Source of the DNA: a virus
Lineage: Duplodnaviria > Heunggongvirae > Uroviricota > Caudoviricetes
DNA: 44,807 bases
Strand: one strand, 5' to 3'
Virus record (IMG/VR): IMGVR_UViG_2541047834_000005
Coordinates: 1-44,807 of that record
This document shows positions 12,591 to 35,417 of the stretch, piece by piece. How positions within the stretch are numbered: the first letter of the stretch is position 1; each line of letters opens with the position of its first letter. The notes beneath the pieces are model-generated. The model was given only the letters and a program-made list of their open reading frames with translations, was not told the DNA's origin and searched no databases. A program made the position numbers and the translations under genes.

Positions 12591-12765
12591 GTGCGCGTTT
12601 CTCCTGCTCTATCCTGTTTGCCTGACTGACCAGCAAGGGAATTTCACTGATCGGCATATTCAGCAATTCGAAGGGATTAATGCGCCAGTAGCTGGCGCAG
12701 TCAAAGAAGCGATCAGTGAGGTATTCAGCCGTCAGGCCTGGAGGAAAAAACCAGCCACAAGCCAC
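12577..12765 (-). CDS. Possible -1 frameshift extension of the tail assembly chaperone
   Basis: 62-aa ORF overlapping the 3' end of the chaperone ORF in another frame, directly upstream of the tape measure. Confidence 0.35.
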   Translation of the reverse strand: MACGWFFPPGLTAEYLTDRFFDCASYWRINPFELLNMPISEIPLLVSQANRIEQEKRAHGGI

Positions 12766-13001
12766 GCCGCTGCATTCAGGTCTGCCGGAGACATCTGGTC
12801 GACAGAGCTTTGCGGCACTTTCGCCAGCCGCACAATGTATTTCGATACAACATGCGCCAGAAGTCTGACGGACTCATCCTGATTCATCTGGTAGGGATAC
12901 CCCAGCTCGCGGACATCTTTCCCGGTGGGCTCATCAAACTCCAGTACGGAGAGTGTCTCGCCATGAGCGGTAATCGGTTTCTTTAACTCAAGCTCTTTCA
13001 T
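12732..13001 (-). CDS. Tail assembly chaperone
   Basis: 89 aa between tube and tape measure. Confidence 0.5.
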   Translation of the reverse strand: MKELELKKPITAHGETLSVLEFDEPTGKDVRELGYPYQMNQDESVRLLAHVVSKYIVRLAKVPQSSVDQMSPADLNAAAWLVAGFFLQA

Positions 13002-13357
13002 TACTGGTAATCCCCTTCTTCACCGTGGAACTCAAGATCAACCGTGCCTTCTTCGGCATTATGGTTCGCTTCGCCGTGCAGCCAGGCTGACGACAATACA
13101 TAGACCTGACCGTTCGCCAGCTCAGCAGTGATGGTCATCTCATCAGACGAGGTGATTTTGCTCACCGGAAAATTCTTCGGCACCTTGAAGGTCCCTTTGA
13201 CATAAGGCGCACGGTGAGTTTCCTTGCGGTCCACTGAACCGTCCAGGCCGATGATGTCATCATTGACCGTCCTGTTCATGGGCACCTCAATGCCGCCGGT
13301 CAGCGATAGCTGCTGACCGTCAATTTTGAAATAACAGGTTCCCCCGATACGGGCCAT
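13001..13357 (-). CDS. Tail tube protein (contractile tail)
   Basis: 118 aa immediately after the sheath gene. Confidence 0.7.
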   Translation of the reverse strand: MARIGGTCYFKIDGQQLSLTGGIEVPMNRTVNDDIIGLDGSVDRKETHRAPYVKGTFKVPKNFPVSKITSSDEMTITAELANGQVYVLSSAWLHGEANHNAEEGTVDLEFHGEEGDYQ

Positions 13358-14853
13358 TATGCAGACTCCTCTGAATACTGAAGACGGAACTGGTTAACCA
13401 CGGCAAAAACACGCAACTGGTTAACATAGTCAGGCGGGAACAGCGTGTTCAGGCGGTTCGGATCGCTGGCATCACGCTCCACAACCAGGTACTGCTTAAA
13501 CAGTTCGTAGTTTTCCACGATCCCCGCACGCTCAAGCTGACGGTAGGTTGCCAGCAGTTCCCCTTTGATTACCGCCGGGGTGACAATCGCCTGACCGGGA
13601 CCAAAGCGGGTACCGTCGCTGGCAAGCTTGTGACGCCCGTACTTACTGGTAATGACGGATTTCAGTTTGCGCAGTACATACGCACTGGTATGCAGCGTCT
13701 CGCTGTCGAGGTAGCTGTTATCCGCAACCCCGTAAGAATTTTTCCTGTACGTGGTGACATCACGCTGAATGCGCAGCACCCCGCTTTCGACATACGCCGT
13801 TGCCACGCCATGAGACAACAGGGTCTGCTGCTCGGTCATCGTGAACAGTTTCCCCTTCGGCGCAGGCAGCATACCCACCAGCTCACCGGTCTGCGTGGGA
13901 CGTGCCGGATCGTTGCGGATAAACACCGCTGCGCGGGCGGTACGGCTTGCCGCCAGCTCGTCGGCAGGCGTCTGGGTCTCTTTTTCGTACCCCGCCAGGG
14001 TAATGTGCTGCTGGTTAAACTGGTCACCAGCGGTCACCAGTTCTGACAGCGTGCCGATCTTTGCCGTATACACATGACCGTACAGCTGACGCGCATAGCT
14101 CCAGCGACCGCTGGTATCGTTCATCTCGGTCACCAGCGTGTTAACGGAGGCCGTGTCGTTGAACGGCAGGCCGATATAATCAAACGGCTCATCCGCCATT
14201 GCAGCCACCGCGCCGGTGAGAACCGGAGCACCCGTTCCGGCGGTACCCGTCGCCACGGCAATCTGTACGCCCGCTGGCAGCACTTCGCCCCCACCAAAGC
14301 CATAGTAATTGAGGCTGACAGGAATTTCATTCCCGCAAAGCCCCTTATGACGCGCGGTCAGTGTGACCACGCCTGCCGAAGATGAAGCCGTAAACGGCAG
14401 GGTCGGAACGGCATTGATGGCATCCTGGATACTGCTGACAATCATCGTGACGTTATCGCCGTTAGTCACCGGTGCCTGCACGCGGGTACGTCCCACATAC
14501 ACATTCACCGTGCCGGTTTCGGTTGCCGCCCCGGTCACCGTCAGCGTAACCGTTGCCGCCGCGCCTGTGGATTCAGGAACGGCAATCACATACAGCTCGC
14601 CAAACGGGTCAGTCTGGCGATAAGCCTCGACCATACGCGCCAGCTGACTTCCCGCACCACAAATCTGGCGTGCATAGTCTGCCGACGACATCAGTACCAG
14701 ACTGTTGGCAACAATCTCTGCACCGTTATTGGCATGACCAATCAGCAGCGATGCTCCGCTGTCCTGTGCAGTATTCGCCGCCTGGTTATCCATTTCCGCA
14801 TAAAACAGCGGAACCAGCGTATTCGACGGAATGGTGTTAAAGCTTATCGTCAT
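13357..14853 (-). CDS. Tail sheath protein (Mu L-like)
   Basis: 498 aa; size and position before the tube gene indicate a myovirus-type tail. Confidence 0.8.
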   Translation of the reverse strand: MTISFNTIPSNTLVPLFYAEMDNQAANTAQDSGASLLIGHANNGAEIVANSLVLMSSADYARQICGAGSQLARMVEAYRQTDPFGELYVIAVPESTGAAATVTLTVTGAATETGTVNVYVGRTRVQAPVTNGDNVTMIVSSIQDAINAVPTLPFTASSSAGVVTLTARHKGLCGNEIPVSLNYYGFGGGEVLPAGVQIAVATGTAGTGAPVLTGAVAAMADEPFDYIGLPFNDTASVNTLVTEMNDTSGRWSYARQLYGHVYTAKIGTLSELVTAGDQFNQQHITLAGYEKETQTPADELAASRTARAAVFIRNDPARPTQTGELVGMLPAPKGKLFTMTEQQTLLSHGVATAYVESGVLRIQRDVTTYRKNSYGVADNSYLDSETLHTSAYVLRKLKSVITSKYGRHKLASDGTRFGPGQAIVTPAVIKGELLATYRQLERAGIVENYELFKQYLVVERDASDPNRLNTLFPPDYVNQLRVFAVVNQFRLQYSEESA

Positions 14854-15007
14854 CGGTGTTCACCTTTTTATTCACGCGCCGGATATCACCCGCTGCTTCA
14901 CGGCGCAGCCAGTAGTTGTTCTCGTCAACATTTCGCCCTTCGACGGGCAAAAGGTCACCGCGGGCAGGGTCAGGCACTGACCGCCCTTTAACAGGTTTCA
15001 CAAACAT
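14837..15007 (-). CDS. Small hypothetical protein (56 aa) upstream of sheath
   Basis: ATG ORF (MFVKPVKGRSVPDPARGDLLPVEG...) filling the gap and overlapping the sheath start. Confidence 0.25.
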   Translation of the reverse strand: MFVKPVKGRSVPDPARGDLLPVEGRNVDENNYWLRREAAGDIRRVNKKVNTDDDKL

Positions 15008-15015
15008 GAAGATTC

Positions 15016-15576
15016 TCAGGAAGGAAGGGTTATTTCGGTGTGATGTTCGATATCGCCGTCAGGCCCGTTACCGGGCTCGAGATAATCAACATCAATCGCC
15101 AGCGTTTGCAGTTCATCCAGACTGTTCAGATCATCCTGCTGGCGGGTATCGTCTTCAGTCAGCTCGCTGATGACCGAAAAATCGAACTGATAAATCAGCT
15201 CATGACGATTCAGATCCAGCAGCGTGCCGCCGTCATAGGTAATCGGGTTACCGCACGCTTCCGGGTTCCAGCCCAGCAGGGCCTTAAAGAGCATCTGCCG
15301 GACATCGTCCACCACATCATACGAGGCAAACTGACCGCGCTCATCACGCCCGTTACTCAGTATGACAACCACGGAGAAGCCCTCTTTCAGCTCCTGCCAG
15401 TAGTCGGTCTGGCTTTTGTTTTCTCCCGGAGAGTCATCACCCGGTACCACATACGCCGCCGGGAGTCTCAGCTTTCCGACCTCCGGCAGATTTTTGAACT
15501 GTGCCGCGCCTGCCACCCGGTTTTCAAAATACGGGCAGCGGGCACGCAGCGCAGCAATAACAGGCGTCAGTTTCAT
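15016..15576 (-). CDS. Virion morphogenesis / tail completion protein
   Basis: 186 aa in the head-tail joining block. Confidence 0.4.
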   Translation of the reverse strand: MKLTPVIAALRARCPYFENRVAGAAQFKNLPEVGKLRLPAAYVVPGDDSPGENKSQTDYWQELKEGFSVVVILSNGRDERGQFASYDVVDDVRQMLFKALLGWNPEACGNPITYDGGTLLDLNRHELIYQFDFSVISELTEDDTRQQDDLNSLDELQTLAIDVDYLEPGNGPDGDIEHHTEITLPS

Positions 15577-16079
15577 CTGTGTCGTCTCTCCGGCTTCAGT
15601 GATTTACGCAATTCCCGCGCCAGAAAATAGCGTGTCCAGCTGCGGTTCTTTTCAAGAGTTTCCACCATGAAGTTATTACGTGGAGCCAGTCGCCAGCCGC
15701 TGCCACCGGATGCACCACGATGATGACTACGACGACGTTTTGCTCCTCCCCGGACACCAAAAAACAGAAACGCCGGATAGAAGTCACCAGAGATCATCCG
15801 GTTCCCCTTCCCGTTGCGCTGGTTAGGTGCAATGCGTGTCATAAAACCGGCTCGCTTTTTACTGGCTCTCGGCACCATATAACCAATCGAACGAGCCAGG
15901 CGTCCGGTCTGATAACCGGGGTTTTCACCCGGTGCCGACCGCGCACGGCGCATCACCAGCCGACGGGCATCACGCATATGACGCTGCCCAATCGTGACAA
16001 ACGCCCTCCGGACACGGGCGCGGTTAAAGCGCATCTCGGCGGGCTGCTGAACATCAACGTGAAAAAAGGGAGTCGCCAT
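15573..16079 (-). CDS. Head-tail joining protein (HK97 gp10-like)
   Basis: 168 aa, basic, overlaps neighbours. Confidence 0.4.
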   Translation of the reverse strand: MATPFFHVDVQQPAEMRFNRARVRRAFVTIGQRHMRDARRLVMRRARSAPGENPGYQTGRLARSIGYMVPRASKKRAGFMTRIAPNQRNGKGNRMISGDFYPAFLFFGVRGGAKRRRSHHRGASGGSGWRLAPRNNFMVETLEKNRSWTRYFLARELRKSLKPERRHR

Positions 16080-16464
16080 TGCTGCCTCCGTGACTCTGCC
16101 TACATTCGCCCAGCTCCGTACACTCCAGCAGCAGAAAGCGCCGCGCCCCGTTCAGATCACGCTGACGTTTCACCCGGTACACACTGTCATCACAGACCAC
16201 CTCATAATCAGCAGTGATCCCCCGGCGGTAACGAATGGTGATGTAATGGGTGATGGCGTCCCCGGTCTGCGCGGTTTCCTGCCAGGTGGTGGCACTGGTC
16301 TGGATAACCTTCGCCCATGTCCGGAACGTAACCGGGTATTGAGGCTCCACGCCAAAGTTATCCGCGGGCATATCCACCCGCTGGCGGATCAGGACGCGTT
16401 TATTCAGTTCACCGGGGTCCGGCAGAATGTAGGTTGCGCTGGTCTGCGCCTGACGAATTTTCAT
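16054..16464 (-). CDS. Head-tail adaptor / head closure protein
   Basis: 136 aa following the gp6-like connector. Confidence 0.45.
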   Translation of the reverse strand: MKIRQAQTSATYILPDPGELNKRVLIRQRVDMPADNFGVEPQYPVTFRTWAKVIQTSATTWQETAQTGDAITHYITIRYRRGITADYEVVCDDSVYRVKRQRDLNGARRFLLLECTELGECRQSHGGSNGDSLFSR

Positions 16465-16784
16465 TGCGGAAAGTACCTGTACGGGCCGACAAGCCAGCCA
16501 AAACTCTGCGGCATGTCGAGTTTCTCCACTTCCGTAACCGACGAGCGGTTTTCGTAAAAATGGCTGATAAGCATCAGCATCCCCAGACGAATATCATCCG
16601 GCAGGTGCAGCCCGTCCGGATCGCTGTCCGGAATGGTTTCATCCGGTGCATAGAGCTTCCGGTTCAGATACGTTTCCGTCCGCTTTTGTGCCGCACAGGC
16701 CAGCAGTTGCAGATGGCGGTCATCAGCATCGAAATCCTCATCCAGCCGGAGTTGGGCTTTAATCTCTTCCATTGTCAGAAGCAT
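16461..16784 (-). CDS. gp6-like head-tail connector protein
   Basis: 107 aa, acidic N-terminus, typical family member after the capsid gene. Confidence 0.6.
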   Translation of the reverse strand: MLLTMEEIKAQLRLDEDFDADDRHLQLLACAAQKRTETYLNRKLYAPDETIPDSDPDGLHLPDDIRLGMLMLISHFYENRSSVTEVEKLDMPQSFGWLVGPYRYFPQ

Positions 16785-16786
16785 AC

Positions 16787-16987
16787 TCAGCCCTCTTTAC
16801 TGGTCGTGGCTTTTTTCTCTTTTGCCGCTTTACTGCTTTTTGCACTGATTCCGCGCTCTGCTAACCCGGCCTGAAGTGCAATCTCCTGCACCCGGGCAGG
16901 AAGCGCCCCGTCGTCATACTCACCGGCCCGAATGACCTCAACACGCATACCGTCCGGTGACCATTTCAGATCTTGTTTCAGGATCAT
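16787..16987 (-). CDS. Small hypothetical head-associated protein
   Basis: 66-aa ORF between capsid and connector. Confidence 0.35.
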   Translation of the reverse strand: MILKQDLKWSPDGMRVEVIRAGEYDDGALPARVQEIALQAGLAERGISAKSSKAAKEKKATTSKEG

Positions 16988-17036
16988 GATTCTTCACCCG
17001 TCAGAACAGGGGGCGCGGTTCCGCGCCCCTGAGTGA

Positions 17037-18242
17037 TTACGCCGCTGCAATCTTCAGCAGTTTGATGGCCTGCGAATCGACCAGCATCCCGCCGGTGCGC
17101 TTGGTGGTATAAAAACCGACAAACGGTTTATTGGTGTACGGGTCACGCAGAATGCGGGTGCCGATACGGTCAACGATGGTGTAACCCCGTTTGAAGTTAC
17201 CAAATGCAATGGCTTTCGCATCAGCGGCGATATCCGGCATCTGTTCGTTTTCAGCGATACCGTAACCCGCCAGAGAGGACGGCTGCCCCAGTTCCAGCCC
17301 CGGACGCCACAGATAGTTACCCTCGGTGTCTTTCAGCAGACGTATGGCAAACAGGCTGTTGTTGTTCATCATGAACTTCGCGCCAGTGCGGTGTGCCTTA
17401 CGCAGCGTGTAAATCAGTTTGATAATGGCGTCTGCGGTCACCGCGGTCGCTTCGCCGGATACAATATGCTGAAGTTTGCCGAACGCCCGGACCTTGTCGG
17501 TTTCATCAGTGGATTCATACGCCAGGAACCCTTTCGGCTTCTTGGTGCCATTGCCTGAGGTAAAGGCAATTTCTTCCTGTTCGGCAAATTCGGTTGCCAG
17601 CTCGCTGTTGATCCAGGCCTCCACGTTGAAGAAGGCATCGTCCAGCATTTTCTGGGTAGCCTGCGGGTTGCCGTAGATTTCCCCCATGAGAGGTTCAATC
17701 AGCTCCAGTCTGGAGGTGGCAGTCTGGGATCGCGTATCCGTTTCCCCCACCCATCCGGAAGCCGTACCGCCCAGATTCACCAGTTTTTTGTAGTCGGAAC
17801 CGCCAACGGTGATCACCGTGGCTTCCTGACGCATCACCACTTCATCTTTCAGCAGGTTAAGAATGTTGCGATCCAGTTCTTCCGGCACGGCGTAGCCACC
17901 GTCTTCATCGGTACCCACCTGCAATGCCTTACGCTCCAGATCGCGCAGACCGTCTTCACGGCCTTTACGCAGGAAGCCCACAAACGCCTCTTTATGCTCG
18001 GTGGCCAGTTTATTTTGCGCTCCACCTGCCGGACGTTTCAGCTCAAGCAGCTCTTTTTCAAGGTCGCTTTTGAGATTTTCCAGCTCGCTGAGTTTCCCGT
18101 TCAGGGTTTCCACCTGCCCGGCAAGCTTGCCTTTTTCCTGCTCAATCGCATCCACGCGCTTGTCGTTCTTTGCTTTGAAGTCGTCAAACTTCTGCTGCAG
18201 CTCCTGCGCGACCTGTTCGACATCTTTAATATCAACCGCCAT
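17037..18242 (-). CDS. Major capsid protein, HK97 family
   Basis: 401 aa with N-terminal coiled-coil delta domain, then HK97-fold capsid region. Confidence 0.85.
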   Translation of the reverse strand: MAVDIKDVEQVAQELQQKFDDFKAKNDKRVDAIEQEKGKLAGQVETLNGKLSELENLKSDLEKELLELKRPAGGAQNKLATEHKEAFVGFLRKGREDGLRDLERKALQVGTDEDGGYAVPEELDRNILNLLKDEVVMRQEATVITVGGSDYKKLVNLGGTASGWVGETDTRSQTATSRLELIEPLMGEIYGNPQATQKMLDDAFFNVEAWINSELATEFAEQEEIAFTSGNGTKKPKGFLAYESTDETDKVRAFGKLQHIVSGEATAVTADAIIKLIYTLRKAHRTGAKFMMNNNSLFAIRLLKDTEGNYLWRPGLELGQPSSLAGYGIAENEQMPDIAADAKAIAFGNFKRGYTIVDRIGTRILRDPYTNKPFVGFYTTKRTGGMLVDSQAIKLLKIAAA

Positions 18243-18256
18243 CGTATTTCTCCTGA

Positions 18257-18943
18257 TTAGAAGTTCAGATTTTTCAGTGCATTCAGTGCAGAGCCCACAT
18301 CCTCAGCGTCGCGCAGGGACAGTGCGCCATAGCCCCCGGCCATGAATGCTTTGGCCTGGGTACGGGAGAGTCCGACATCACGCAGGACTCTTTCGATTTT
18401 TTTCTGTTCGGGGATTTCCCCGCGGGCCAGTGCGTTCTTGACGTCGCTGATCCGCGCCTCGTCGTTAGACGGGAACGTCACCAGGCTGACTTCCCAGAGG
18501 TCGATTTCTTTCAGCAGAAAGGCTTCTTTGCTCCGGTCGTATTCCCAGTCTTTCAGGACGTACCCAATAGAAAGGCCGGTTAACGAACCGGCCTTCATGT
18601 GTGCATGTGCGCGTTTTGCGAGGGGATCATCATCAATAAGCAACCGTCCCCTGACGTAAAGCCCGACATCGTCTTCCTTCATTTCGGTGTAAACACCGAT
18701 GGGTTCATCCATGCGGTGCTGCCAGAGCAGCGCAGGTAACGCTTTTCTGTCACTCCACGCCCGCAGGGAAGCAGCAAATGCCCCGGACATCACCACATCA
18801 TCGTGGCTGTCCTTTACACCAAAGACGGAGCCATACCCTTCAAACTCACCGGAGTCACTGACAGATTTCAGACTCAGCGGTACATCAAGACGTTGTTTCG
18901 TCTGCATTGGCGTTATCCTTCTGCTTACCGGCTTTACTGCCAT
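18257..18943 (-). CDS. Prohead protease (HK97 family)
   Basis: 228 aa between portal and capsid. Confidence 0.8.
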   Translation of the reverse strand: MAVKPVSRRITPMQTKQRLDVPLSLKSVSDSGEFEGYGSVFGVKDSHDDVVMSGAFAASLRAWSDRKALPALLWQHRMDEPIGVYTEMKEDDVGLYVRGRLLIDDDPLAKRAHAHMKAGSLTGLSIGYVLKDWEYDRSKEAFLLKEIDLWEVSLVTFPSNDEARISDVKNALARGEIPEQKKIERVLRDVGLSRTQAKAFMAGGYGALSLRDAEDVGSALNALKNLNF

Positions 18944-20126
18944 CGGAGGGTTTCGTGGTCATGTTCATCGGTGTGAGATAGACATCACCACCGGGTCGTG
19001 GATTCATATCTTCCAGGTCGCGGCAGTCATTGGGAGAGTAAATTCCCCAGTTGATCCCGGTGGCGTAGGCTTCAAAACGGGACTTCATATCCCCGCGCAG
19101 TAACGCCCCGGCGTTAAATTTGGCGTAATAAACGCCCTGCTTACTTTTTCGTACCAGTCCGGTGTTGATCCGCTGTTCGATGCGGGTCAGATACGGCACC
19201 AGTGAATAGTTGATAAATCCCAGCCCCAGCTCTTCGATATTGTTGAAGGTGGCGCGATCGGTGTTCTGCACCATGTGCAACGGCACCCGGAACAGACGAC
19301 AGATTTCTTCAAGCTGAAACTTGCGGGTTTCCAGGAACTGGCTGTCCTCGGCGTTCAGCGCCATCGACTTCCAGTCCAGCCCCATCTCAAGGATCATCGG
19401 GCGGTGAGCATTGCCAAGCCCGGTGTGACGCTCCTCAAAATCTTTCTTCAGGCGCTCATAAGCCTGATCTGACAGCGTCTGCTCTGTACGCAACACACCC
19501 GACGTCACCGCGCCATTGCTGAACAGTCTGGCCCCGTGCTCTTCGGTCGCTGCCGCCAGCGATATTGCCTCGCGGGCATAGGCGATGGGATTCAGCCCCA
19601 CCAGTCCGTCCAGCGTCAGCGTGCGCACATGCCAGATATCCTCCTGGCTCAGTACATCCGTGGAGCCATCCGGGAATGTGACCTGATAGACCGGCTCCCA
19701 GCTACTGTTAAGCTTCGGTACCACACAGCCGGGATCGACGGGCAGCAGTTCAGCCACTTCGCCAAATGCTTTCACTTTGTAGGCGTAAAAGTTTCCCCGC
19801 AGGCACAGACAGGTGACCACCAGCTCCCAGAACTCCTGCGGCGTCATATAGCCATTGGGATGCGTGGAGATCAGCTTATGCAGACGTTCGCCAGCGGCTC
19901 TCTGTTTCAGACTGCCGTTCAGGTGATACAGGTTGCAGGGCAACATCCCGACCGACTCCGCCAGCACCCTGACACAGGAAAAAACCGCCGTCAGTCGCAT
20001 GGCCCGCTGGCTGCTGATCTGCTTTCCGGTATAGGTGTCGTAGGACAACCCGATAACATCCGCCAGCTCTGCTGGCGTGGTCACCGGTGCGTCACTTTTT
20101 CGTTGAAATAATCCCGAAAAGAACAC
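18885..20126 (-). CDS. Portal protein (HK97 family)
   Basis: 413 aa following terminase. Confidence 0.85.
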   Translation of the reverse strand: MFFSGLFQRKSDAPVTTPAELADVIGLSYDTYTGKQISSQRAMRLTAVFSCVRVLAESVGMLPCNLYHLNGSLKQRAAGERLHKLISTHPNGYMTPQEFWELVVTCLCLRGNFYAYKVKAFGEVAELLPVDPGCVVPKLNSSWEPVYQVTFPDGSTDVLSQEDIWHVRTLTLDGLVGLNPIAYAREAISLAAATEEHGARLFSNGAVTSGVLRTEQTLSDQAYERLKKDFEERHTGLGNAHRPMILEMGLDWKSMALNAEDSQFLETRKFQLEEICRLFRVPLHMVQNTDRATFNNIEELGLGFINYSLVPYLTRIEQRINTGLVRKSKQGVYYAKFNAGALLRGDMKSRFEAYATGINWGIYSPNDCRDLEDMNPRPGGDVYLTPMNMTTKPSDGSKAGKQKDNANADETTS

Positions 20127-20308
20127 TATTTACCTCCGCCGACAGACGACTGTGTACGGTCGAGATATCGCGCCACCAGCCACGACCAGAACAGACACAA
20201 CGCCCCGGCAACAACAAACCCCGCCGGGGGATAAATCAGCCAGGCACCATACGCCAGCAAAAGCGCCCCCAGCACGCCCACCAGAGGCGCGAGAATCAGC
20301 ATGATCAT
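20126..20308 (-). CDS. Small two-helix hydrophobic protein between terminase and portal
   Basis: 60 aa, [48 protein letters not shown]...; fills the terminase-portal gap. Confidence 0.35.
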
Positions 20309-20319
20309 AATTACCTCAG

Positions 20320-22053
20320 TTAAAGCGAGCGGATCCCATAGGACTCAATGTGGTCAGACAGCGTGTCTTCTTTCTCGTACAGCATGGCTCTGCCAACCGC
20401 CATAATCAGCGCAACTGCACCATCGATTTTGTTTTCCGCCTGCTCTTTGACGGGCTTCACTAAATCATCGTTACCTGGCATGTTTTTGCCGACCACATTG
20501 CCGATACACCAGGTCATGATGGGATTGCCGTCATGATGAAAGCGTCCCGATTCAATCGCTGCCTCCAGCTCTTTCATCGGGTCGGACATATTGGCGAAGT
20601 TCTGGACGATAGTAACGGGATTCAGGTCTTCATCAGCAAGGTCATGTGACAGCCCGGTCGCTCCGAAAGGGTCGATGGGTGACTCACTGACCGGGCTGAT
20701 TTTGTTCGCCGCTTTGGCCTCTTCGAGGATGTAGCGATAATCCACCTCTGCACCATCGGTAACGGTCAGAACGCCCATTTCCACCCATTTCTGAAAGCGT
20801 TCGGCTGTCCGGCGATCTTCATTTTTCTCGACGCTGTACACCGTGTCATACGGTACCCAGAAACGCGGGGCCACACTGTAGTAATGCGTTTTACCGTCAA
20901 TCTCGCGGGTATAAAGTCGCGCCATGCTGTTCATATCCAGCTTACGCGCCAGGTCAAAGGCCAGAATGCACGGCTGCCCCTCGAACTGCTCAAGAGTCAG
21001 TGATTTATCCTCGCAGCTCTGCCAGCTCACCAGGTTGAAATACGCCGAACGCGCCGACACCCAGATATTGAGGTGTTTTGTTTTAAAGACGTTTGCCAGA
21101 CGGGCGTTATTTTTCGCACGCTGCTGCTGACTTAACAAAAATTCGCGATAAACCGACACGCCAATATTTGGATTGGCTTTTTCCAGCACCTGCGGGTCGG
21201 TCCAGTCGTCACCTTCATCAACGGTATAGATGATCCCGAACAGTTCATCGTTAGGCACCGAGCCGTTGAGCATCTCGATGACTTCCCGCCGCTTGTCGTA
21301 GCACGGCCCCTCAATGTTGTACCCGGCGGTGGTGATGGCCCACATCAGTGGCTGACGTCGCGCCCCCATCCCGGTAAGCATTGTGGTATAAAGCGCATCG
21401 GTGGCATGCTCGTGATATTCATCAACCACGGCACAGTGGGGTGATGAACCATCACCTGGGTTGCCGATCAGCGGTTCAAACCGCGCGCCATCCTCCGGAC
21501 GGTTCATGTTTGAGGCGTTAACCTCAATCCCGAACGCTTCCGTCAGCATGGGTGTGCGTTTACACATCAGTCGCGCCGGGCGAAAGACTTCCCACGCCTG
21601 TTTCTCTGTCGTGGCACCGGAATACACTTCCGCGCCAAACTCGTTATCACAGGCAAAACAATACAGGGCAACACCGGCAGAGATTGCTGATTTGCCGTTC
21701 TTACGGGGGATTTCGGTGTACACCTCCCGGAAGCGGCGCAACCGGGTGCCTTTATTGACCCAGCCAAACGCACAGCAGATCACAAATAGCTGCCACGGCT
21801 CCAGCGTGATGGGCATCCGTTTGAATGCCCACTCCCCCTTGGTGTGCGGCAACAGCTGAATAAATTTCGCGGCCCGTTCAGCCAGGTCCTTGTCGAAGCG
21901 GTAACGAAACGACTTACTTTTTTCCGCCATCAGGTCATCAAGATGGCGCTGGCAGGCCTGAATCACAAACTGGCAGGCAACAATCTTTCCGCGGACGACA
22001 TCCCGGGCATACTGATTTGCAGCATTTACGTTGGGGTAAGATTTCCGGCTCAT
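20320..22053 (-). CDS. Terminase large subunit
   Basis: 577 aa, Terminase_1-like with ATPase and nuclease regions. Confidence 0.9.
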
Positions 22054-29447: not shown

Positions 29448-31328
29448 TTAATACTCCGTCACGTTTTCCTGTCGCCACGCCTCGTCATATTCCGATTTCG
29501 GCATATTGGCGATGTAGCTATATGGCGATCCTGATTCAAGTTGCAGGAACTGGTGCGATTGTTCATCAAGGAACAACGGGACACCACCTTCCCAACCTTC
29601 GCCGTTACGTTGTTTTTCAAGCATCAAAACAGATGCCGGAGATGCCAGTAGCTGTTCGTCCTTCTCTGACATCTTTTCACCACTCTGAACTCTCTGTAAC
29701 GCTCTCTCGCGAGCCTTGTTACGCCAGATGATGAAAAGGTTGTCTGTCAGGTCTGTTATCGCTCCAGAGCCTTTTACGTCCATTTTCCCGGTTGGTTTTT
29801 CTTCGCTGTCTCCTTTTCGCGAGTGAGTAACGAGAATGACGTGGGAGTTTGTTTTGTTTTTGAAGTCGCAAATCGAGTCAACAAACGCCTTCTGCCCGTT
29901 ATAGTCATCGTCGCCTATGCCACATTTCATCAGGCTGTCGATGATGAATAACTGGATGCCGTATCGGCGGCGAGCGTAGTCGAATATTTCGATCAGCCTG
30001 TCGGCTTTCGCCGTTCCGGTCAGGCCAAACACCCAAAGTCTTTCGTCATAAAATTTAAATGCAGAGTCAATTTCCAGCACTGGCGGCATCTTGCAGCACG
30101 TTGCCTGACGGGTAAGTCGCTTAAGGAGAATGCCTGGCTTCAGCTCAAGTGATGCAATGCAGGTCTTTACACCCTGACGCATTGCCTCAAGTGCCATATG
30201 CCCGACAACCTCCGTTTTTCCGTGACCGTTCACACCATTGACCAGCGTCAACTCGGCCTCACGGAACTGGAATTTATCTGCCAGAGATTCCCACGGTGGA
30301 TTAAACAGATACTGCTGCTTGCCGTAGAAAGCGTTGATAGTGTCCTGGTAAAACTCTCGCGCGCTGTAGAGTTCTTCAGGATCGAAGTAGGATGCCGTGC
30401 CGATGTACTGCCAGATTTCATCCTCGGTAACACCGTTCATCAGGCATTCGTTGATGTCTTTGTACGGCAGAGTAACAAGACGGCAACGATGTTCACCGAG
30501 TCGGCTTGCGATTTCCCTTGCGGCTTCACGACCAACATCATCAACGTCCATCGAGATGAATATTTCCTCAAACCTGTCGAGGTTGTGATACTCAAACTCA
30601 ATCCACTGTTGCTTAGCACCTTTCCCGCCACCAAACGGCACGGATAACGCCGAGATGCCGTATTGCGCATAGCTCATACAATCAATTTCGCCTTCGCAAA
30701 GTACAACCGCCCTCACGCCAGCGTCCAGAGCCTGCCATCCGAACAGACAAGGTTCGCAATCACCTTCTGCCATAATGACTTTCTTCCCGTCCGGGCGCTC
30801 AGTGCTGATTCGCTTGACCTGCAACAACTCACCATCGCGTTTGTACGGAAGCACCAGAGCATCCAGTTCTCGTTCTCCATTCCACACCTTGCCGCTGACA
30901 ACCTCGTAGCGCTTTACGACTTCTGGCGATATGCCACGCGATTGCAGGTACTCAAGATGGGATTCTGTTCTGGTAACGTAGCGGGCGATTTTCTTGCGAT
31001 CAGGTCTGGAGAATTTCTTCTCACGTTTGGCATCGAAATGGTGATCGTCATCCTTGATACCGAGAAATGCTTTCGCTTCCTGCATAGCCTGATGCAGGTT
31101 AATTCCTCGACATGCCATCCACAAATCAAGCATGTCACCGCCGTCTCCCTCAGCGAAATCAGCCCATTTTTTCTTGCCGCTAAGGTTGACCTTAAGGCTG
31201 TTTCCCTTGTCACCGTTGACGTTACCGGCAACCCACTCATGCCCCTCTTTTTTGCCGTTTGGCAACAGGTGCGGAGCCACCCTGTCAACCTGCGACCAAA
31301 GCAGGTCGCTGAGTTCACTTGGCGTCAT
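29448..31328 (-). CDS. Bifunctional DNA primase / DnaB-like replicative helicase
   Basis: 626 aa; toprim-like LCEGEIDCMSY segment; Walker A GVNGHGKT and Walker B IIDSL; occupies the P position after O. Confidence 0.7.
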   Translation of the reverse strand: MTPSELSDLLWSQVDRVAPHLLPNGKKEGHEWVAGNVNGDKGNSLKVNLSGKKKWADFAEGDGGDMLDLWMACRGINLHQAMQEAKAFLGIKDDDHHFDAKREKKFSRPDRKKIARYVTRTESHLEYLQSRGISPEVVKRYEVVSGKVWNGERELDALVLPYKRDGELLQVKRISTERPDGKKVIMAEGDCEPCLFGWQALDAGVRAVVLCEGEIDCMSYAQYGISALSVPFGGGKGAKQQWIEFEYHNLDRFEEIFISMDVDDVGREAAREIASRLGEHRCRLVTLPYKDINECLMNGVTEDEIWQYIGTASYFDPEELYSAREFYQDTINAFYGKQQYLFNPPWESLADKFQFREAELTLVNGVNGHGKTEVVGHMALEAMRQGVKTCIASLELKPGILLKRLTRQATCCKMPPVLEIDSAFKFYDERLWVFGLTGTAKADRLIEIFDYARRRYGIQLFIIDSLMKCGIGDDDYNGQKAFVDSICDFKNKTNSHVILVTHSRKGDSEEKPTGKMDVKGSGAITDLTDNLFIIWRNKARERALQRVQSGEKMSEKDEQLLASPASVLMLEKQRNGEGWEGGVPLFLDEQSHQFLQLESGSPYSYIANMPKSEYDEAWRQENVTEY

Positions 31329-31435
31329 GATTCCCTCAGATTGAGATTTTTAAACCAGAAATCGACAAACGAAATACTTAACCAGCCGTGGTTATAACCA
31401 GCGACCAGTAGCGATTTGATTTTTGATTTCATGGT

Positions 31436-32296
31436 TCACCTGTCGAAAAACACGTAGCCAGTTTTCGATACGGTGATTGCGGATAATGGTTTGGATTGTG
31501 GTTGAATAGTTTCTGGCTTCTCGTCGTTCCAGCGTTGACCGTTCAGGTAGCTCGATGGTAACAACCTGTCGAATCCGAACTGCTTACCATTCCTGCATGC
31601 GATGTCTTCTGCCAGCATCGTGGCAAACTCGCTTGCCGTACCACTGGTAGTTTTACGCCATTCCCTGAACTGTGTTCTGAATGCTGAAACTGCGTTTTTC
31701 TTCCCGGCTTTCCGCATGCCTGCACACCAGAATATTTCCTCGAATGCCTTGTCGGTTTCTTCGTGACGGTCAGATGATTTTTCACACTCCGTCCGAACAC
31801 TTTCGGACATAGTGTTTTTATTATTTCTTTTTTCTTTTGTAATAGTTTCTTTTGTGTGTCCCTGTTTTGGTGACAGCGCTGTCACCGTTTTGGTGACACT
31901 TTTTGTCACCAATGTAGTGACATTATCACCAGAGTAGTGACACCCTTCGATTTGCCATTCCTCGATGTTCTTGTTAGGCCCGATTTGCTGGCCTTCGCGA
32001 AGGATAACCTTCATCGCGATAAGCTCATTCTTGGCCTTGTTTACCTTCTGTCTTGGCAGCCTGGTAATTTGAGCTAACTGACTATCAGAGATGCGATCCA
32101 TCTTTTTACCGTAGCCGTATGTTTTACGGCATATGGCGTGGGCAACCTTGCTCTGATTTTTCGTTAAATCTGCGCCGATAAGCTCTTCATACAGGGCATT
32201 TGCAAGACGGGTATAACCATCTTCAACTTCTGCCACACGACGCTCCACAGGCCGTTGTGAAGGCCTTAAATGTGTTACGGTTGCAAGATTACTCAT
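31436..32296 (-). CDS. Replication initiator O-like protein
   Basis: 286 aa; N-terminal domain resembles lambda O ([21 protein letters not shown]...MDRISDSQL); ori iterons lie inside the gene. Confidence 0.75.
31811..31946. repeat. Putative replication origin: AT-rich tract followed by GGTGACA/TGTCACC iteron dyads inside the O gene
   Basis: Five or more copies of the 7-mer as palindromic pairs (tggtgacagcgctgtcacc, tggtgacactttttgtcacca, ...) within ~80 bp, preceded by a ~50-bp AT-rich stretch. Confidence 0.6.
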
Positions 32297-32480
32297 GACC
32301 TTTCTCCTTCTGCATCAGCTTCACTTTTTCCAACTCAGCCCGGAATCGACCAGGCTGCTTGAAGCTGGACAGGAAGCGATCACGTAGTATGTGTTTGTGA
32401 ATTTTGTCCTGGTAAGGACTGAGTTGTTTTGTCATAATGACTCCTGTGGATTGATCCAGTCTTTCTACATCAGGCCTCAA
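32289..32480 (-). CDS. Small hypothetical ORF bridging cII and O
   Basis: 63-aa ORF overlapping both neighbours by a few bp; no recognisable family. Confidence 0.2.
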
Positions 32481-32748
32481 AACTGTTGCCGCAGTCTTGA
32501 GGCTTTTCTTTTGTCAGCACCATGGCTACTTTCTTTGCCAGCTCCGCTAATTCCTCGTCTTCAACACCCCACTCCAGTACAGCCAGAAGCATGGCCATCT
32601 TTGGGATAAAGCTGTCTTTCCATCGCGAAATTTGCGATTCATTGATCCCTAATGCATCAGCAACCTTTCGCTGACCACGTACAGCAATTCGATTTAGGAT
32701 GTTGCTTGTAATTGCATTCGCTTTCTTGCGAGTACTTGTAAGTTGCAT
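32470..32748 (-). CDS. cII: cII transcriptional activator
   Basis: Start at internal ATG ([23 protein letters not shown]...); ESQISRWK...[19 protein letters not shown] matches lambda cII; AAGGAAA RBS upstream. Confidence 0.8.
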
Positions 32749-32781
32749 ATGTAAGTATTTCCTTAACAAATAAGAAGTTAT

Positions 32782-32799
32782 GCGCACCAACTGATGCGC
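32782..32799 (-). terminator. tR1-like hairpin between nutR and cII
   Basis: GCGCA-N8-TGCGC dyad followed on the transcribed strand by a T-rich tract. Confidence 0.35.
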
Positions 32800-32806
32800 G
32801 TTGTAT

Positions 32807-32851
32807 TCCCGCATTTCGGCGGGAATGAGGACCATGACTGTTAAAGAGCGG
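32807..32851 (-). promoter_or_regulatory. nutR (boxA CGCTCTTTAAC plus boxB hairpin TTCCCGCCGAAATGCGGGAA)
   Basis: boxA-like sequence and perfect hairpin between cro and cII; identical boxB found in nutL. Confidence 0.6.
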
Positions 32852-32856
32852 TGTTA

Positions 32857-33051
32857 CTATTTGTTTTTCTTGTTGCTTGGGAAAGGACGAACTTCCTCTC
32901 CAATCACACTGCCATCAGGCTTTACCGTAACCATAATGTTACGGCCTGCCAGAATGGCCTTGCTGATAGCGCACTGGATTACACCAAAGTCACTGGCTGC
33001 TTTAGCCTGTCCATGGATTTTGGCGTAATCGGCAAGTGTCATTCGAATCAT
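32857..33051 (-). CDS. cro: Cro repressor
   Basis: [33 protein letters not shown]...FPSNKK aligns with lambda Cro; GGAGAG RBS. Confidence 0.8.
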
Positions 33052-33080
33052 ATGCACTCTCCGTTATTAACCATGAACAA

Positions 33081-33151
33081 AGAATACTACAGGTATTCAA
33101 AGCAATCAATACTCAGGGTATTTTTAGTTTAAGTACCTTAGTTATTAGAAT
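33081..33151. promoter_or_regulatory. oR region: two AATAC-N5-GTATT operators (33083-33097, 33108-33122), pR (-10 TATTCT, -35 TTGATT on minus strand) and leaderless-type pRM (-10 TAGAAT 33146-33151)
   Basis: Two perfect dyads 25 bp centre to centre overlapping candidate pR hexamers; TAGAAT ends 6 nt before the cI ATG with no SD. Confidence 0.55.
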
Positions 33152-33157
33152 TAAGCT

Positions 33158-33874
33158 ATGGAAAATAAAAAATCACTGACGACAGAACAGCTCGAAGACG
33201 CTAAGCGGCTTAAGGCTTTGTATGAGTCAAAAAAGAAAGAATTGGGAATAACCCAATACTCAATCGCTGATGAACTGGGTATCACCCAAGGAGCGGTAGG
33301 GCATTATCTTAATGGCAGAAACGCGCTAAACGTTGAGGTTGCATCTGGTTTTGCACGACTGTTGCAAGTCTCAATTGCTGATTTTAGCCAGTCAATTGCT
33401 GCCAAGGTTGCAGAACAGGCAGAAAGCCTTAAGAGCGATGCCAACGTAAGGTATGCAGGGGAATACAGAGCAGGAAAGAGGTATCCGGTGTTAAGCAGTA
33501 TCCAGGCTGGCTCGTGGTGTGAAGCATGCGAACCATACACCATTAAAGACATAGATGTTTGGCTTGAGTCTGACGCGCATATTCAAGGTAATGCGTTCTG
33601 GCTTAAAGTGGAAGGTGATTCAATGACGGCACCGGTTGGGTTAAGCATTCCAGAGGGAACATTCGTTCTTTTCGATACCGGAAGGGAGGCGATCAACGGC
33701 AGCTTGGTCATAGCAAAACTTTCTGACTCTAACGAAGCAACATTCAAGAAGCTGATAATCGACGGCGGAAATAAATACCTCAAGGGACTTAACCCTGCAT
33801 GGCCTCTCGTGCCAATCAATGGAAACTGCAAGATTATAGGCGTTGCAATTGAGACAAAACTAAGGCTGGTTTGA
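33158..33874 (+). CDS. cI: cI repressor (HTH + LexA/S24-like autocleavage domain)
   Basis: 238 aa; N-terminal HTH (QYSIADELGITQGAVGHYLNG) and C-terminal S24 region (GDSM...K). Confidence 0.85.
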   Translation: MENKKSLTTEQLEDAKRLKALYESKKKELGITQYSIADELGITQGAVGHYLNGRNALNVEVASGFARLLQVSIADFSQSIAAKVAEQAESLKSDANVRYAGEYRAGKRYPVLSSIQAGSWCEACEPYTIKDIDVWLESDAHIQGNAFWLKVEGDSMTAPVGLSIPEGTFVLFDTGREAINGSLVIAKLSDSNEATFKKLIIDGGNKYLKGLNPAWPLVPINGNCKIIGVAIETKLRLV

Positions 33875-34260
33875 TCACGCAAGGGGCGCTTATGGTTGGA
33901 ACCGCTATAGCAAGCTTTTTTGGGATGTTGGCAATCTCGACAATTTACGGCTTAGCGCATGCTTTTATTGCGAAATCTCTATCAGAAAAAATAAGCCAGG
34001 CTTGGGCGCATAGATCAGCTCGTTTCATGATTCTGGTGATCATAGCAATACAAGGGATATCTGCATTTATCCTCTATGGTTCAAGCTTATACCTGTTGTA
34101 TCAAGGCGCGACATTTACGCCTTACACCAGTGATTACGGAACGCTATACGATGGTAGTGAAGACATCTCTATGGCTTGGATTGTCTTTGGTTTATCTATG
34201 GCCGTGTCTGTTGTAGCAGACATCATTAAGGTAATTCTCGTCTTAACCTTCGCTGACTAA
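33871..34260 (+). CDS. Small polytopic membrane protein coupled to cI (rexAB position)
   Basis: 129 aa with three to four hydrophobic helices; start overlaps the cI stop; between cI and oL/pL. Confidence 0.5.
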   Translation: MITQGALMVGTAIASFFGMLAISTIYGLAHAFIAKSLSEKISQAWAHRSARFMILVIIAIQGISAFILYGSSLYLLYQGATFTPYTSDYGTLYDGSEDISMAWIVFGLSMAVSVVADIIKVILVLTFAD

Positions 34261-34346
34261 CCCATAATCCCGGCAGCAATAGCTATCGGGATCCACTTCA
34301 CATATCCCGCATAAAAAGCACTGAACAAGCAGACACCGAAAAAATA

Positions 34347-34432
34347 AATATCCTTTGTATTCATTTGCTTATCATTATTTCACCAAAAATAAATACCTTG
34401 GGTATTTACACAATAAAATACCTACAGTATTC
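34347..34432 (+). promoter_or_regulatory. oL/pL: three operator dyads (34347-34361 imperfect, 34392-34406, 34417-34431) with -35 TTTACA (34404-34409) and -10 TATTCT (34427-34432)
   Basis: Same AATAC-N5-GTATT dyad as at oR; 17-bp spacer; both hexamers overlap operators. Confidence 0.55.
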
Positions 34433-34479
34433 TTTAGCCATCAGCAGGACGCTGGAAGCCAAACGGAACAGATTGGCAG

Positions 34480-34520
34480 GCTCTTTAACATTGATGGGAT
34501 TGTCCCGCCGAAATGCGGGA
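34480..34520 (+). promoter_or_regulatory. nutL (boxA GCTCTTTAA plus boxB hairpin TCCCGCCGAAATGCGGGA)
   Basis: Same boxB as nutR, downstream of pL and upstream of N. Confidence 0.6.
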
Positions 34521-34851
34521 ACCAAAGAGTAGTTGGCTTTGGGGTGTGGTGAAGGGTTCATGGACGGGAATATGTCGCACGTAAAGCGGCGAGGCCTGCG
34601 GGACTATTGCCGAATTGAAGTCGGACGAAGCGGGTCGAAATGGGTCTCCCACCTACCACACCACCAAAGCTAATCATCTGAGGAACAGAAAATGTTAGAC
34701 ATCATGACCAACCCAATTCTCGGTGGTTTAGTTACCACATTCGCCATCTGCTTCGGTTTCACTATCTGGTCTGAAGTAGATGACTGGATGTGGGAACGCA
34801 AAAACAAATAATCATCGACACACAAGGATGTGCACCTACCCGGAGGTCAAC

Positions 34852-35157
34852 ATGACAGTAGTCATTACATATCTGGCTGACGATAACGCCAGAAATCGCC
34901 GCAGAGCACGCAGACAGGCTCAACGTGAGCAGGCAATGCAAGAACAGCGACTGGCGCGAAAAATTGCGCTAAAGCTCTCTGGTTGCGTCAGAGCAGACAA
35001 AGCAGCATCACTCGGAAGCCTTCTCTGCAAGAGGGTAGAAGAAGTCGAGCGTAAACAGAACCGTATTTACTACCGCAAGCCACGGAGTGAAATGGGTGTG
35101 ACATGCTCAGGCCGCCAGAAGCAACGCGGAAAATCAATTCCAGCTTATTACGATTGA
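34852..35157 (+). CDS. N: N-like transcription antiterminator
   Basis: Arg-rich N-terminus (NARNRRRARRQAQREQA); C-terminus GVTCSGRQKQRGKSIP resembles lambda N; GGAGG RBS; actual start inside the listed 125-aa ORF. Confidence 0.75.
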   Translation: MTVVITYLADDNARNRRRARRQAQREQAMQEQRLARKIALKLSGCVRADKAASLGSLLCKRVEEVERKQNRIYYRKPRSEMGVTCSGRQKQRGKSIPAYYD

Positions 35158-35165
35158 GGTGAGAT

Positions 35166-35417
35166 ATGGAATTTCATGAAAGTGCGATTTGTGATTTTCG
35201 CGCTAACGCAAATTCAGTAAAACCACAGCCAATTGCAGTTCTTTTTAAAACAATGGGTGCGTGGGCTGTTTTATGCTTCGCCGCTGATGACACTGACGCA
35301 AGAATGGCAATAGGCCAAGAGATGGAGATGGACCCGACAAACGATGAATTCATAATTTATGGCGCTCCATCTAATTACTTACTTGATACCTGCAACATTT
35401 ACAACAAGGCTGCCTGA
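35166..35417 (+). CDS. Hypothetical protein
   Basis: 83-aa ORF just downstream of N. Confidence 0.45.
   Translation: MEFHESAICDFRANANSVKPQPIAVLFKTMGAWAVLCFAADDTDARMAIGQEMEMDPTNDEFIIYGAPSNYLLDTCNIYNKAA

Follow-up and report, generated by a model that had tools for sequence, protein, structure and literature searches.

AATAC-N5-GTATT dyads at oR and oL of a lambdoid prophage are very probably operators of the HK620 immunity type

The perfect dyads AATAC-N5-GTATT (AATACNNNNNGTATT) in the immunity region of this prophage are, judged from sequence, almost certainly the repressor and Cro binding sites of the prophage switch, and we consider it very probable that they act as operators in a bistable, lambda-style switch that belongs to the HK620 immunity type. 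Their specificity is already known: the prophage is an ordinary member of a common, non-lambda immunity type. The first-pass annotation of this DNA had called for a comparison with the operator sets of known lambdoid phages, implying that the specificity was new. That implication fails, since the dyads match a published operator family, that of HK620 (GenBank AF335538). The switch has been annotated since 2001 and its discovery value is therefore little; its use lies in giving a clean consensus across genera for a repressor and its operators, a pair orthogonal to that of lambda and apparently never footprinted.

We searched the window, that is, the whole 44,807-bp stretch of DNA analysed, and found exactly four perfect dyads, all on the + strand and all confined to two regulatory regions, oR (33083-33097 and 33108-33122) and oL (34392-34406 and 34417-34431). 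Dinucleotide-preserving shuffles yielded a mean of 0.02 copies and a maximum of 1, and none of 100 shuffles gave four. A mismatch scan detected one degenerate copy in each region, at 33132-33146 (2 mismatches; the second oR dyad is 24 bp away) and at 34347-34361 (1 mismatch; the first oL dyad follows 45 bp downstream). With these copies, read as OR3 and probably as OL3, there would be a three-site set at each of oR and oL. The earlier count of two dyads at oR and two to three at oL thus holds, with 2 + 2 perfect copies plus the degenerate one at 34347-34361. The full operator site spans 17 bp, with the consensus n-AATAC-y-N3-r-GTATT-n. A position weight matrix trained solely on the sites of three other phages (Hafnia, Serratia, Erwinia) ranked the four perfect dyads 1-4 of 44,791 window positions, and OR3 ranked 8 of 44,791. 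An RNA element was rejected as an explanation of the dyads or of the long pL-N leader: an Rfam scan of 32400-35400 (E<=1) returned a match to SCARNA7 alone, which is meaningless. The features of the region are listed in Table 1.

Table 1. Features of the immunity region, in window coordinates.
Feature	Position	Strand	Description
cII (92 aa)	32470-32748	-	Pfam Phage_CII, E=7e-45; aligns with HK620 cII
nutR	32805-32850	-	boxA GCTCTTTAAC, boxB TCCCGCCGAAATGCGGGA, both as in nutL; aligns with HK620 nutR feature
cro (64 aa)	32857-33051	-	Pfam Cro, E=4e-26; PDB lambda Cro 1cop, E=5e-19; aligns with HK620 cro
pR	33081-33109	-	-10 TATTCT (33086-33081), 17-nt spacer, -35 TTGATT (33109-33104)
OR1	33082-33098	.	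GAATACTACAGGTATTC; perfect 17-bp dyad; covers pR -10 and spacer; centre -68 from cI ATG
OR2	33107-33123	.	CAATACTCAGGGTATTT; overlaps pR -35 by 3 bp; abuts pRM -35; centre -43
OR3	33131-33147	.	AAGTACCTTAGTTATTA; 2 mismatches in 15-bp core; overlaps pRM -10; centre -19
Putative pRM	33123-33151	+	weak -35 TTTAGT (33123-33128), 17-nt spacer, -10 TAGAAT (33146-33151)
cI repressor (238 aa)	33158-33874	+	HTH N-terminal domain with helix 3 TQGAVGHYLNGRN; S24 autoprotease domain
hkaS-like hydrophobic protein	33892-34260	+	downstream of cI (rex place in lambda); aligns with HK620 hkaS
Probable true OL3	34346-34362	.	AAATATCCTTTGTATTC; 1 mismatch; 45 bp from OL2; weight-matrix rank 6 of 44,791
HK620-annotated OL3 position	34369-34385	.	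TTATCATTATTTCACCA; operator role unsupported; weight-matrix score -20.9, rank 19,204 of 44,791
OL2	34391-34407	.	AAATACCTTGGGTATTT; perfect 17-bp dyad; overlaps pL -35 by 3 bp
pL	34405-34433	+	-35 TTTACA (34405-34410), 17-nt spacer, -10 TATTCT (34428-34433); found by promoter scan; inside HK620 pL feature
OL1	34416-34432	.	AAATACCTACAGTATTC; covers pL spacer and -10
nutL	34479-34520	+	boxA GCTCTTTAAC, boxB TCCCGCCGAAATGCGGGA; aligns with HK620 nutL feature
N antiterminator (101 aa)	34852-35157	+	arginine-rich N-terminus; start region identical to HK620 N

We used the HK620 record AF335538 (Clark, Inwood, Cloutier & Dhillon 2001, J Mol Biol 311:657) as the operator reference. This record annotates OR1, OR2, OR3, OL1, OL2, pR and pL, and each of these features coincides to the base with a dyad or promoter of the window; its pR feature maps to 33074-33109 and encloses the pR hexamers that we read. 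The segment 32800-34547 (cro-oR-cI-hkaS-oL-nutL) is 98.7-99.2% identical to HK620, mEpX2, HK630, HK140 and HF4s, phages that carry the HK620-type immunity region as do some Stx2c phages, and the DNA of the immunity region is 98.8% identical to that of HK620. Only 1 of 131 oR bases differs from HK620, in OR3, and OR1, OR2, OL1 and OL2 are identical; oR of mEpX2 likewise differs by one base. The N-terminal domain of cI is 98.9% identical to that of HK620 and 100% identical to those of mEpX2 and HK140. Unlike HK620, the nutL-N spacer from about 34547 consists of a 933W-like segment and a 39-aa ORF. Among 5,426 complete E. coli genomes, 146 have the HK620 immunity type, and at least 1,000 public contigs encode precisely these cI and Cro proteins. 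The operator annotation of HK620 may have been made from inspection of the sequence alone: a full-text search for the cores of the six operators, read in either direction, found no open-access paper that prints them, and the literature searched on the HK620 operator, repressor or immunity yielded neither a binding study nor footprints, EMSA results or operator mutants for an HK620-type repressor.

We then compared the window with relatives from other Enterobacterales, comprising three phages (Hafnia phage Pocitis76, Serratia phage vB_SspS_OS31 and Erwinia phage vB_EhrS_49) and 30 of 31 fetched chromosomal loci (L039, a 25-residue match, was omitted), among them prophages of Yersinia, Pantoea, Pectobacterium, Proteus, Morganella, Kluyvera and others. 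This gave 34 loci including the window, and the cI N-terminal domains of the relatives were 59-84% identical. The relatives share the cI helix 3 motif of the window, their Cro helix is identical or nearly so, and the dyads recur in them at unchanged distances from the cI ATG. All 32 loci with the helix [ST]QG[AG][VI]GHY[LM]NGR carried a dyad with at most one mismatch in the stretch from 76 to 25 bp before the cI ATG, and most of them had a second dyad cluster downstream of cI; no further match of such quality was found within +/-2.5 kb at the dyad-bearing loci. At the two loci with a QSAVGHY helix, the dyad was absent at oR. Spacers and flanks have diverged in the relatives, and the dyad arms are kept.

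These data bear on whether the dyads could be chance palindromes in AT-rich promoter DNA, or parts of promoter hexamers, that have no operator function. The right arm GTATTC, followed by T, does form the -10 TATTCT of pR and pL, and its conservation could partly reflect the promoter; however, OR2, OR3, OL2 and OL3 do not coincide with same-strand -10 hexamers, and across about 30 genera-level lineages both arms are conserved while the N5 spacer is free. With four copies against 0.02 expected, the shuffles, the weight matrix and the cross-locus conservation effectively refute this explanation, to which we assign a negligible probability.

The proteins of the switch are those of a lambdoid phage. 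Full-length cI matched lambda repressor (PDB 3bdn, E=3e-52) with 43% identity to lambda cI, and contained the Pfam domains HTH_3 and Peptidase_S24; its self-cleavage residues are Ala117-Gly118, Ser155 and Lys197, the Ala-Gly site, the Ser and the Lys being kept relative to lambda cI. Cro is a member of the lambda Cro family, 63% identical to lambda Cro, and its gene comes first in the pR operon. Structure prediction was deemed needless, the homology to the solved lambda cI and Cro structures being already decisive. No significant Pfam family was found for the hkaS-like protein, and the Pfam N_peptide match of the N protein was weak and below the cut-off.

We next assessed whether the recognition residues agree with the dyads. 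The Cro 'evolutionary code', as restated in PMC6649833, pairs Gln at H1 with A+2, Ala at H3 with A+5 and Lys at H6 with C+6. The Cro protein of this prophage has Gln, Ala and Lys at H1, H3 and H6, and the half-site n-A-A-T-A-C of the 17-mer gives A2, A5 and C6 as the code predicts. This test bears directly on Cro alone, and the literature searched yielded no cI binding data. In a rival reading, Cro alone or some other factor would occupy the dyads, and cI would recognise a different, unnoticed sequence. To our knowledge, however, cI and Cro use common operators in every characterised lambdoid switch (lambda, 434, P22). Moreover, the presence of the dyad follows the cI helix-3 sequence across the 34 loci, inspection of the sequence between cro and cI revealed no other repeated dyad, and the positions of the sites relative to pRM equal those for lambda cI. 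We regard a separate cI target as very improbable and operators common to cI and Cro as the preferred reading.

A natural variant was also observed among the relatives. Phage Fostie (L031), whose helix carries a Gly-to-Ser change, has AGTAC-N5-GTACT and AGTAT-N5-ATACT dyads at oL; its oR sites are ambiguous, AGTACT itself being palindromic. From its sequence, the variant appears to use AGTAC-type half-sites, which, if true, would provide a ready-made specificity switch of one residue and one base.

We examined whether the operators belong to other known immunity types. The lambda operator half-sites TATCACCGC had no match at oR or oL with up to 2 mismatches allowed, and the cI and Cro recognition helices also differ from those of lambda (cI helix 3, QGAVGHYLN here vs QSGVGALFN; the Cro helix differs from lambda YQSAINKAIH), so the prophage does not belong to imm-lambda. 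Nor does it fall into 434 immunity, as ACAA-N6-TTGT had no match at oR or oL with up to 1 mismatch. The P22 immC operators have an 18-bp consensus of the ATTTAAG-N4-CTTAAAT type; the best match to it at oR and oL was a single one with 4 mismatches in an A/T run at oL, and membership in this type was rejected as well. These results agree with the first-pass annotation, which had read the operators as not lambda and, as far as it could tell, not 434, and had expected the prophage to be hetero-immune. Consistent with this, mEpX2, which has the same cI N-terminal domain, is hetero-immune to lambda: it is assigned to a different immunity group from those of lambda, HK022, phi80 and others, and triple lysogens of lambda, HK022 and mEpX2 have been constructed (PMC3442831). 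The half-site nAATACyn differs from the lambda half-site TATCACCG at positions 1, 3, 4, 7 and 8, and this difference runs parallel to the helix-3 difference. A lysogen is therefore expected to be immune to HK620, mEpX2, HK630, HK140-type and some Stx2c phages, and not to lambda, 434, 21, P22, HK022 or phi80. Outside the operators, the reading of lambda-type int/att was confirmed, as an integrase with the lambda Int arm-binding domain and an excisionase lie beside ybhC, while that of lambda-type nut sites stood for the layout and not for the sequence (boxB TCCCGCCGAAATGCGGGA here vs GCCCTGAAGAAGGGC in lambda nutL).

The dyads had also been described as overlapping the -10/-35 elements of pR and pL and abutting a leaderless-type pRM, and the hexamers were indeed read at those positions, with pRM as a putative promoter. 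At the level of sequence, the lytic promoter shares bases with O1 and O2, the pRM -10 shares bases with O3, and O2 lies directly beside the pRM -35. The cro-cI intergenic region is 106 bp long, and the centres of OR1, OR2 and OR3 are 25 and 24 bp apart. With 8 of 12 consensus matches, pR fell under the threshold of the promoter scan and so was not called by it. TAGAAT at 33146-33151 precedes the cI ATG (33158) by 6 nt without a Shine-Dalgarno sequence, and a TA(G/C/A)(A/T)AT hexamer 6-7 nt before the ATG, also without one, is conserved in about 30 related loci. An OR3-like site starting at -26/-27 is kept in most relatives. We infer that pRM, which has no annotation in the HK620 record, is leaderless and starts at or beside the cI ATG.

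By homology with lambda, cI dimers would bind OR1 and OR2 as well as OL1 and OL2. Bound there, the dimers would occupy the -10, the spacer and the -35 border of both pR and pL, and would thereby turn off transcription of cro-cII-replication and of N. At OR2, abutting the weak -35 of the leaderless pRM, cI would probably activate pRM; at OR3, over the pRM -10, it would exert negative autoregulation, and OR3 would likely be the first target of Cro. SOS-activated RecA would promote self-cleavage of cI at Ala117-Gly118 through the Ser155/Lys197 dyad, leading to prophage induction. The physical binding and occupancy order in this scheme are inferred, and pRM activation and cooperative binding are assumed from lambda. 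The position of the lambda positive-control residue Glu34 is occupied by Tyr in this cI.

The third oL site differs from that in the reference record. We propose that the true OL3 is probably 34346-34362, in which case the OL3 of the HK620 record is a probable mis-annotation. The record places OL3 at 34369-34385, which is 22 bp from OL2 and close to the 20 bp of lambda and the 21 bp of Erwinia, Pantoea and Lonsdalea relatives, and 34346-34362 could then be a chance match, as matches scoring equally well occur elsewhere in the window (2743 and 5312). However, TTATCATTATTTCACCA is unlike the consensus, with the low score and rank given in Table 1, and the 45+25 bp layout recurs: Kluyvera (L035) and Phytobacter (L036) prophages have it with three perfect dyads, and Serratia phage OS31 has it with one copy degenerate. 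The recorded position therefore seems to us unlikely, and 34346-34362 remains the preferred OL3. A 35-aa minus-strand ORF that starts in the OL3-OL2 gap was rejected as the cause of the 45-bp spacing, as it is absent from other 45-bp lineages. The OL2-OL3 spacing in relatives is 21, 29-30 or 45-47 bp, and the 45-bp distance is a non-integral number of helical turns. Given three discrete distances in the family (21, about 30 and about 45 bp), OL3 may act differently from its lambda counterpart in any oL-oR loop. We see about even chances for the broader proposal that OL3 really lies 45 bp upstream of OL2 and that AATAC-N5-GTATT / QGAVGHYLNGRN is one specificity class across many Enterobacterales genera.

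Finally, we compared the switch with those of lambda and epsilon34. Lambda has three 17-bp dyads with centres at -66/-42/-19 from its leaderless cI start, and the corresponding centres here are -68/-43/-19 from the cI ATG; a second operator set at pL is likewise lambda-like. The half-site positions A2, A5 and C6 are common to both phages, as are the cI equivalents of Gln33, Gln44, Asn52 and Asn55. In contrast, the Cro helix differs from that of lambda at H0, H2, H5 and H9, the OL2-OL3 spacing is probably 45 bp vs 20 bp in lambda, and the rexA/rexB genes of lambda are absent. The putative operators WTACRAWWTGTAT of Salmonella phage epsilon34, proposed from sequence only, have similar arms of the TAC/GTA type and lie in an immunity region that is P22-like or lambdoid, but the epsilon34 site is 13 bp, with a shorter spacer than the 17-bp sites described here (PMC2629481).

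Across the 44.8-kb window, the pattern scan returned exactly four AATAC-N5-GTATT dyads, against a chance mean of 0.02 (dinucleotide-preserving shuffles of the window). One pair sits in the 106-bp gap between cro and cI (oR). The other lies 1.2 kb downstream, past a hydrophobic hkaS-like ORF (oL), with nutL and an arginine-rich N gene directly downstream of it. Near the perfect dyads, the mismatch scan revealed no extra copies beyond two: one at oR with two mismatches (33132-33146, spaced 24 bp from the second perfect dyad there) and one at oL with a single mismatch (34347-34361, 45 bp from the first perfect dyad there). The first-pass annotation had described the dyads accurately.

Positions 32800-34547 shared 98.7-99.2% identity with HK620, mEpX2, HK630, HK140, HF4s, and several Stx phages. 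The HK620 GenBank record AF335538 (Clark et al. 2001) annotates OR1-3, OL1-3, pR, pL, nutL, and nutR, and its features were mapped as window = locus + 31299. OR1-3, OL1, and OL2 of HK620 fall on the dyads, which therefore match a published operator set. The first-pass annotation had implied a new specificity and had named such a match as evidence against it; the dyads are the published HK620 operators. Published work places mEpX2 in an immunity group distinct from those of lambda, HK022, phi80, and others, and describes lambda/HK022/mEpX2 triple lysogens (PMC3442831), so the hetero-immunity it predicted is already an experimental fact for the HK620 immunity type. These results indicate that the feature is real, was correctly interpreted, and is already known as the HK620-type lambdoid immunity region. 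Our literature search found no footprint or EMSA for an HK620-type repressor.

In a 131-bp alignment, a single base separated the oR of the window from that of HK620 and mEpX2: position 33142 in OR3, T in the window (AGTTATT) and C in both phages (AGCTATT). OL1 and OL2 showed no differences. Of 5,426 complete E. coli genomes, 146 carried the immunity module. At least 1,000 public contigs encode exactly these cI and Cro proteins, with Salmonella, Shigella, and Klebsiella contigs among them.

Features of the immunity region in window coordinates
Feature	Position	Strand	Details
nutR	32805-32850	minus	boxA GCTCTTTAAC, boxB TCCCGCCGAAATGCGGGA
Cro, 64 aa	32857-33051	minus	Pfam Cro, E=4e-26
Perfect dyads, oR	33083-33097, 33108-33122		
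OR1	33082-33098		HK620 feature; dyad + 1 base each side
OR2	33107-33123		HK620 feature; dyad + 1 base each side
OR3	33131-33147		HK620 feature; dyad + 1 base each side
pR		minus	TTGATT-17-TATTCT; sequence reading; HK620 pR feature
TAGAAT	33146-33151		6 nt before cI ATG; no ribosome-binding site
cI repressor, 238 aa	33158-33874	plus	HTH_3 + Peptidase_S24
Perfect dyads, oL	34392-34406, 34417-34431		
OL2	34391-34407		HK620 feature; dyad + 1 base each side
OL1	34416-34432		HK620 feature; dyad + 1 base each side
pL			TTTACA-17-TATTCT
nutL	34479-34520	plus	boxA GCTCTTTAAC, boxB TCCCGCCGAAATGCGGGA
N, arginine-rich	34852-35157		

OR1 covers the -10 and spacer of pR, OR2 shares 3 bp with its -35, and OL1 and OL2 are placed on pL in the same way. 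The TAGAAT hexamer and the missing ribosome-binding site before the cI ATG form the layout predicted for a leaderless pRM; relatives likewise conserve the -10-like hexamer just past OR3 and lack a leader.

Used as a tblastn query, the N-terminal domain of cI retrieved Hafnia, Serratia, and Erwinia phages (67-84% identity), and a one-genome-per-species scan added 31 loci (59-84% identity in this domain), including Yersinia, Serratia, Pectobacterium, Pantoea, Lonsdalea, Proteus, Morganella, Photorhabdus, Providencia, and Kluyvera. With L039 left out (a locus with a 25-residue match only), 34 loci including the window were tabulated. In 32/32 loci carrying [ST]QG[AG][VI]GHY[LM]NGR, a dyad with at most one mismatch lay between -76 and -25 relative to the cI ATG, usually starting at -74, -50, and -26, and most of these loci had a second cluster downstream of cI; the +/-2.5 kb examined held no further match of this quality. 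The dyad was absent at oR of the two QSAVGHY loci. For Serratia phage vB_SspS_OS31, the cI start given in the annotation (2453-2500) is probably wrong: it precedes the conserved leaderless ATG by 48 nt, and the gene then runs through OR2 and OR3. Hafnia phage Pocitis76 has an annotated tRNA-Gly (3923-4002) in an unusual place, between pL/nutL and N.

A four-lineage alignment showed invariant arms and variable N5 spacers and inter-operator DNA. The window together with the Hafnia, Serratia, and Erwinia phages supplied 48 half-sites, of which 48 had A2, 45 A3, 48 T4, 47 A5, 36 C6, and 43 a pyrimidine at position 7. The cross-genus operator consensus is nAATACy-N3-rGTATTn. A weight matrix built solely from the three foreign phages, without the window sites, placed the four dyads at ranks 1-4 among 44,791 positions of the window, with the distal oL site in 6th place and OR3 in 8th.

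The same matrix was applied to OL3. The HK620-annotated OL3 maps to 34369-34385 (TTATCATTATTTCACCA), scores -20.9 (rank 19,204 of 44,791), and does not resemble the operator consensus, whereas AAATATCCTTTGTATTC at 34346-34362, a one-mismatch dyad 45 bp upstream of OL2, scores 14.7. This 45+25 bp layout recurs in one Kluyvera and one Phytobacter prophage, where all three dyads are perfect, and in Serratia phage OS31, where one copy is degenerate; in other lineages OL3 lies 21 or about 30 bp from OL2. We favour 34346-34362 as the probable OL3 over the annotated site, a re-assignment made uncertain by two chance matches of similar score elsewhere in the window. The ATG of a hydrophobic 35-aa minus-strand ORF (MNTKDIYFFGVCLFSAFYAGYVKWIPIAIAAGIMG; 34257-34364, between hkaS and oL) overlaps this probable OL3; HF4s is the sole phage in which this ORF is annotated, and other lineages that share the operator spacing do not conserve it.

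A sister repressor with TQSAVGHY replacing TQGAVGHY in helix 3 occurs in Escherichia phage Fostie (L008; 2400-2500, 3280-3335) and in locus L031. The Fostie-type locus has no AATAC-N5-GTATT; its oL carries AGTAC-N5-GTACT and AGTAT-N5-ATACT dyads, and its oR sites are ambiguous. The replacement could represent a naturally occurring specificity switch brought about by one residue. The L031 record is labelled 'Chryseobacterium sp.' yet bears an enterobacterial-type module, so it may be contaminated or mislabelled.

Outside the operators, the claim of lambda-type int/att was borne out: an excisionase and a 356-aa integrase that has the arm-binding domain of lambda Int lie beside ybhC, the lambda attB flank. 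The claim of lambda-type nut sites held for layout but not for boxB, which is identical, like boxA, in nutL and nutR and differs from lambda's (TCCCGCCGAAATGCGGGA versus GCCCTGAAGAAGGGC); N specificity is therefore also predicted to be non-lambda. Between nutL and N, a mosaic joint (~34547-34851) replaces the HK620 spacer. Positions 34540-34676 shared 95.6% identity with 933W, Stx2 phages, and mEp234, and the remainder of the joint had no megablast match in the phage collection; it encodes a 39-aa putative membrane peptide (34692-34811) found on about 800 public contigs. Past cII, the putative replication ORFs (286 and 626 aa; 29448-32296, minus strand) are not the same size as O and P of HK620, so the immunity module probably sits in a different mosaic context. 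At the far prophage end (926-3674), three ORFs (120, 305, and 491 aa) resemble the gtrA/gtrB/gtrC O-antigen modification genes in size and order, followed by a long minus-strand block of virion-sized ORFs (3973-22053).

Finally, we compared the module with lambda, 434, and P22. None of their operator consensuses was present at oR or oL, in agreement with the earlier reading that the dyads are neither lambda nor 434 operators. The cI protein matches lambda repressor over the full length (PDB 3bdn, E=3e-52) with 43% identity, Cro is 63% identical to lambda Cro, and operator centres lie at -68, -43, and -19 from the cI ATG, compared with -66, -42, and -19 in lambda. The Ala117-Gly118 cleavage site and catalytic Ser155 and Lys197 are conserved, so the prophage is expected to be SOS-inducible. 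Residues that read the DNA are different: cI helix 3 is Q-G-A-V-G-H-Y-L-N rather than Q-S-G-V-G-A-L-F-N, and the Cro recognition helix differs from lambda's Y-Q-S-A-I-N-K-A-I-H. In the published Cro 'evolutionary code' (PMC6649833), A+2 goes with Gln H1, A+5 with Ala H3, and C+6 with Lys H6. The window Cro has Gln, Ala, and Lys at these positions, and in the 17-bp register the half-site n-A-A-T-A-C agrees with the code at A2, A5, and C6, providing an independent check on operator register and cognate protein. These three positions are shared with the lambda half-site (T-A-T-C-A-C), and specificity has changed relative to lambda at positions 1, 3, 4, 7, and 8.
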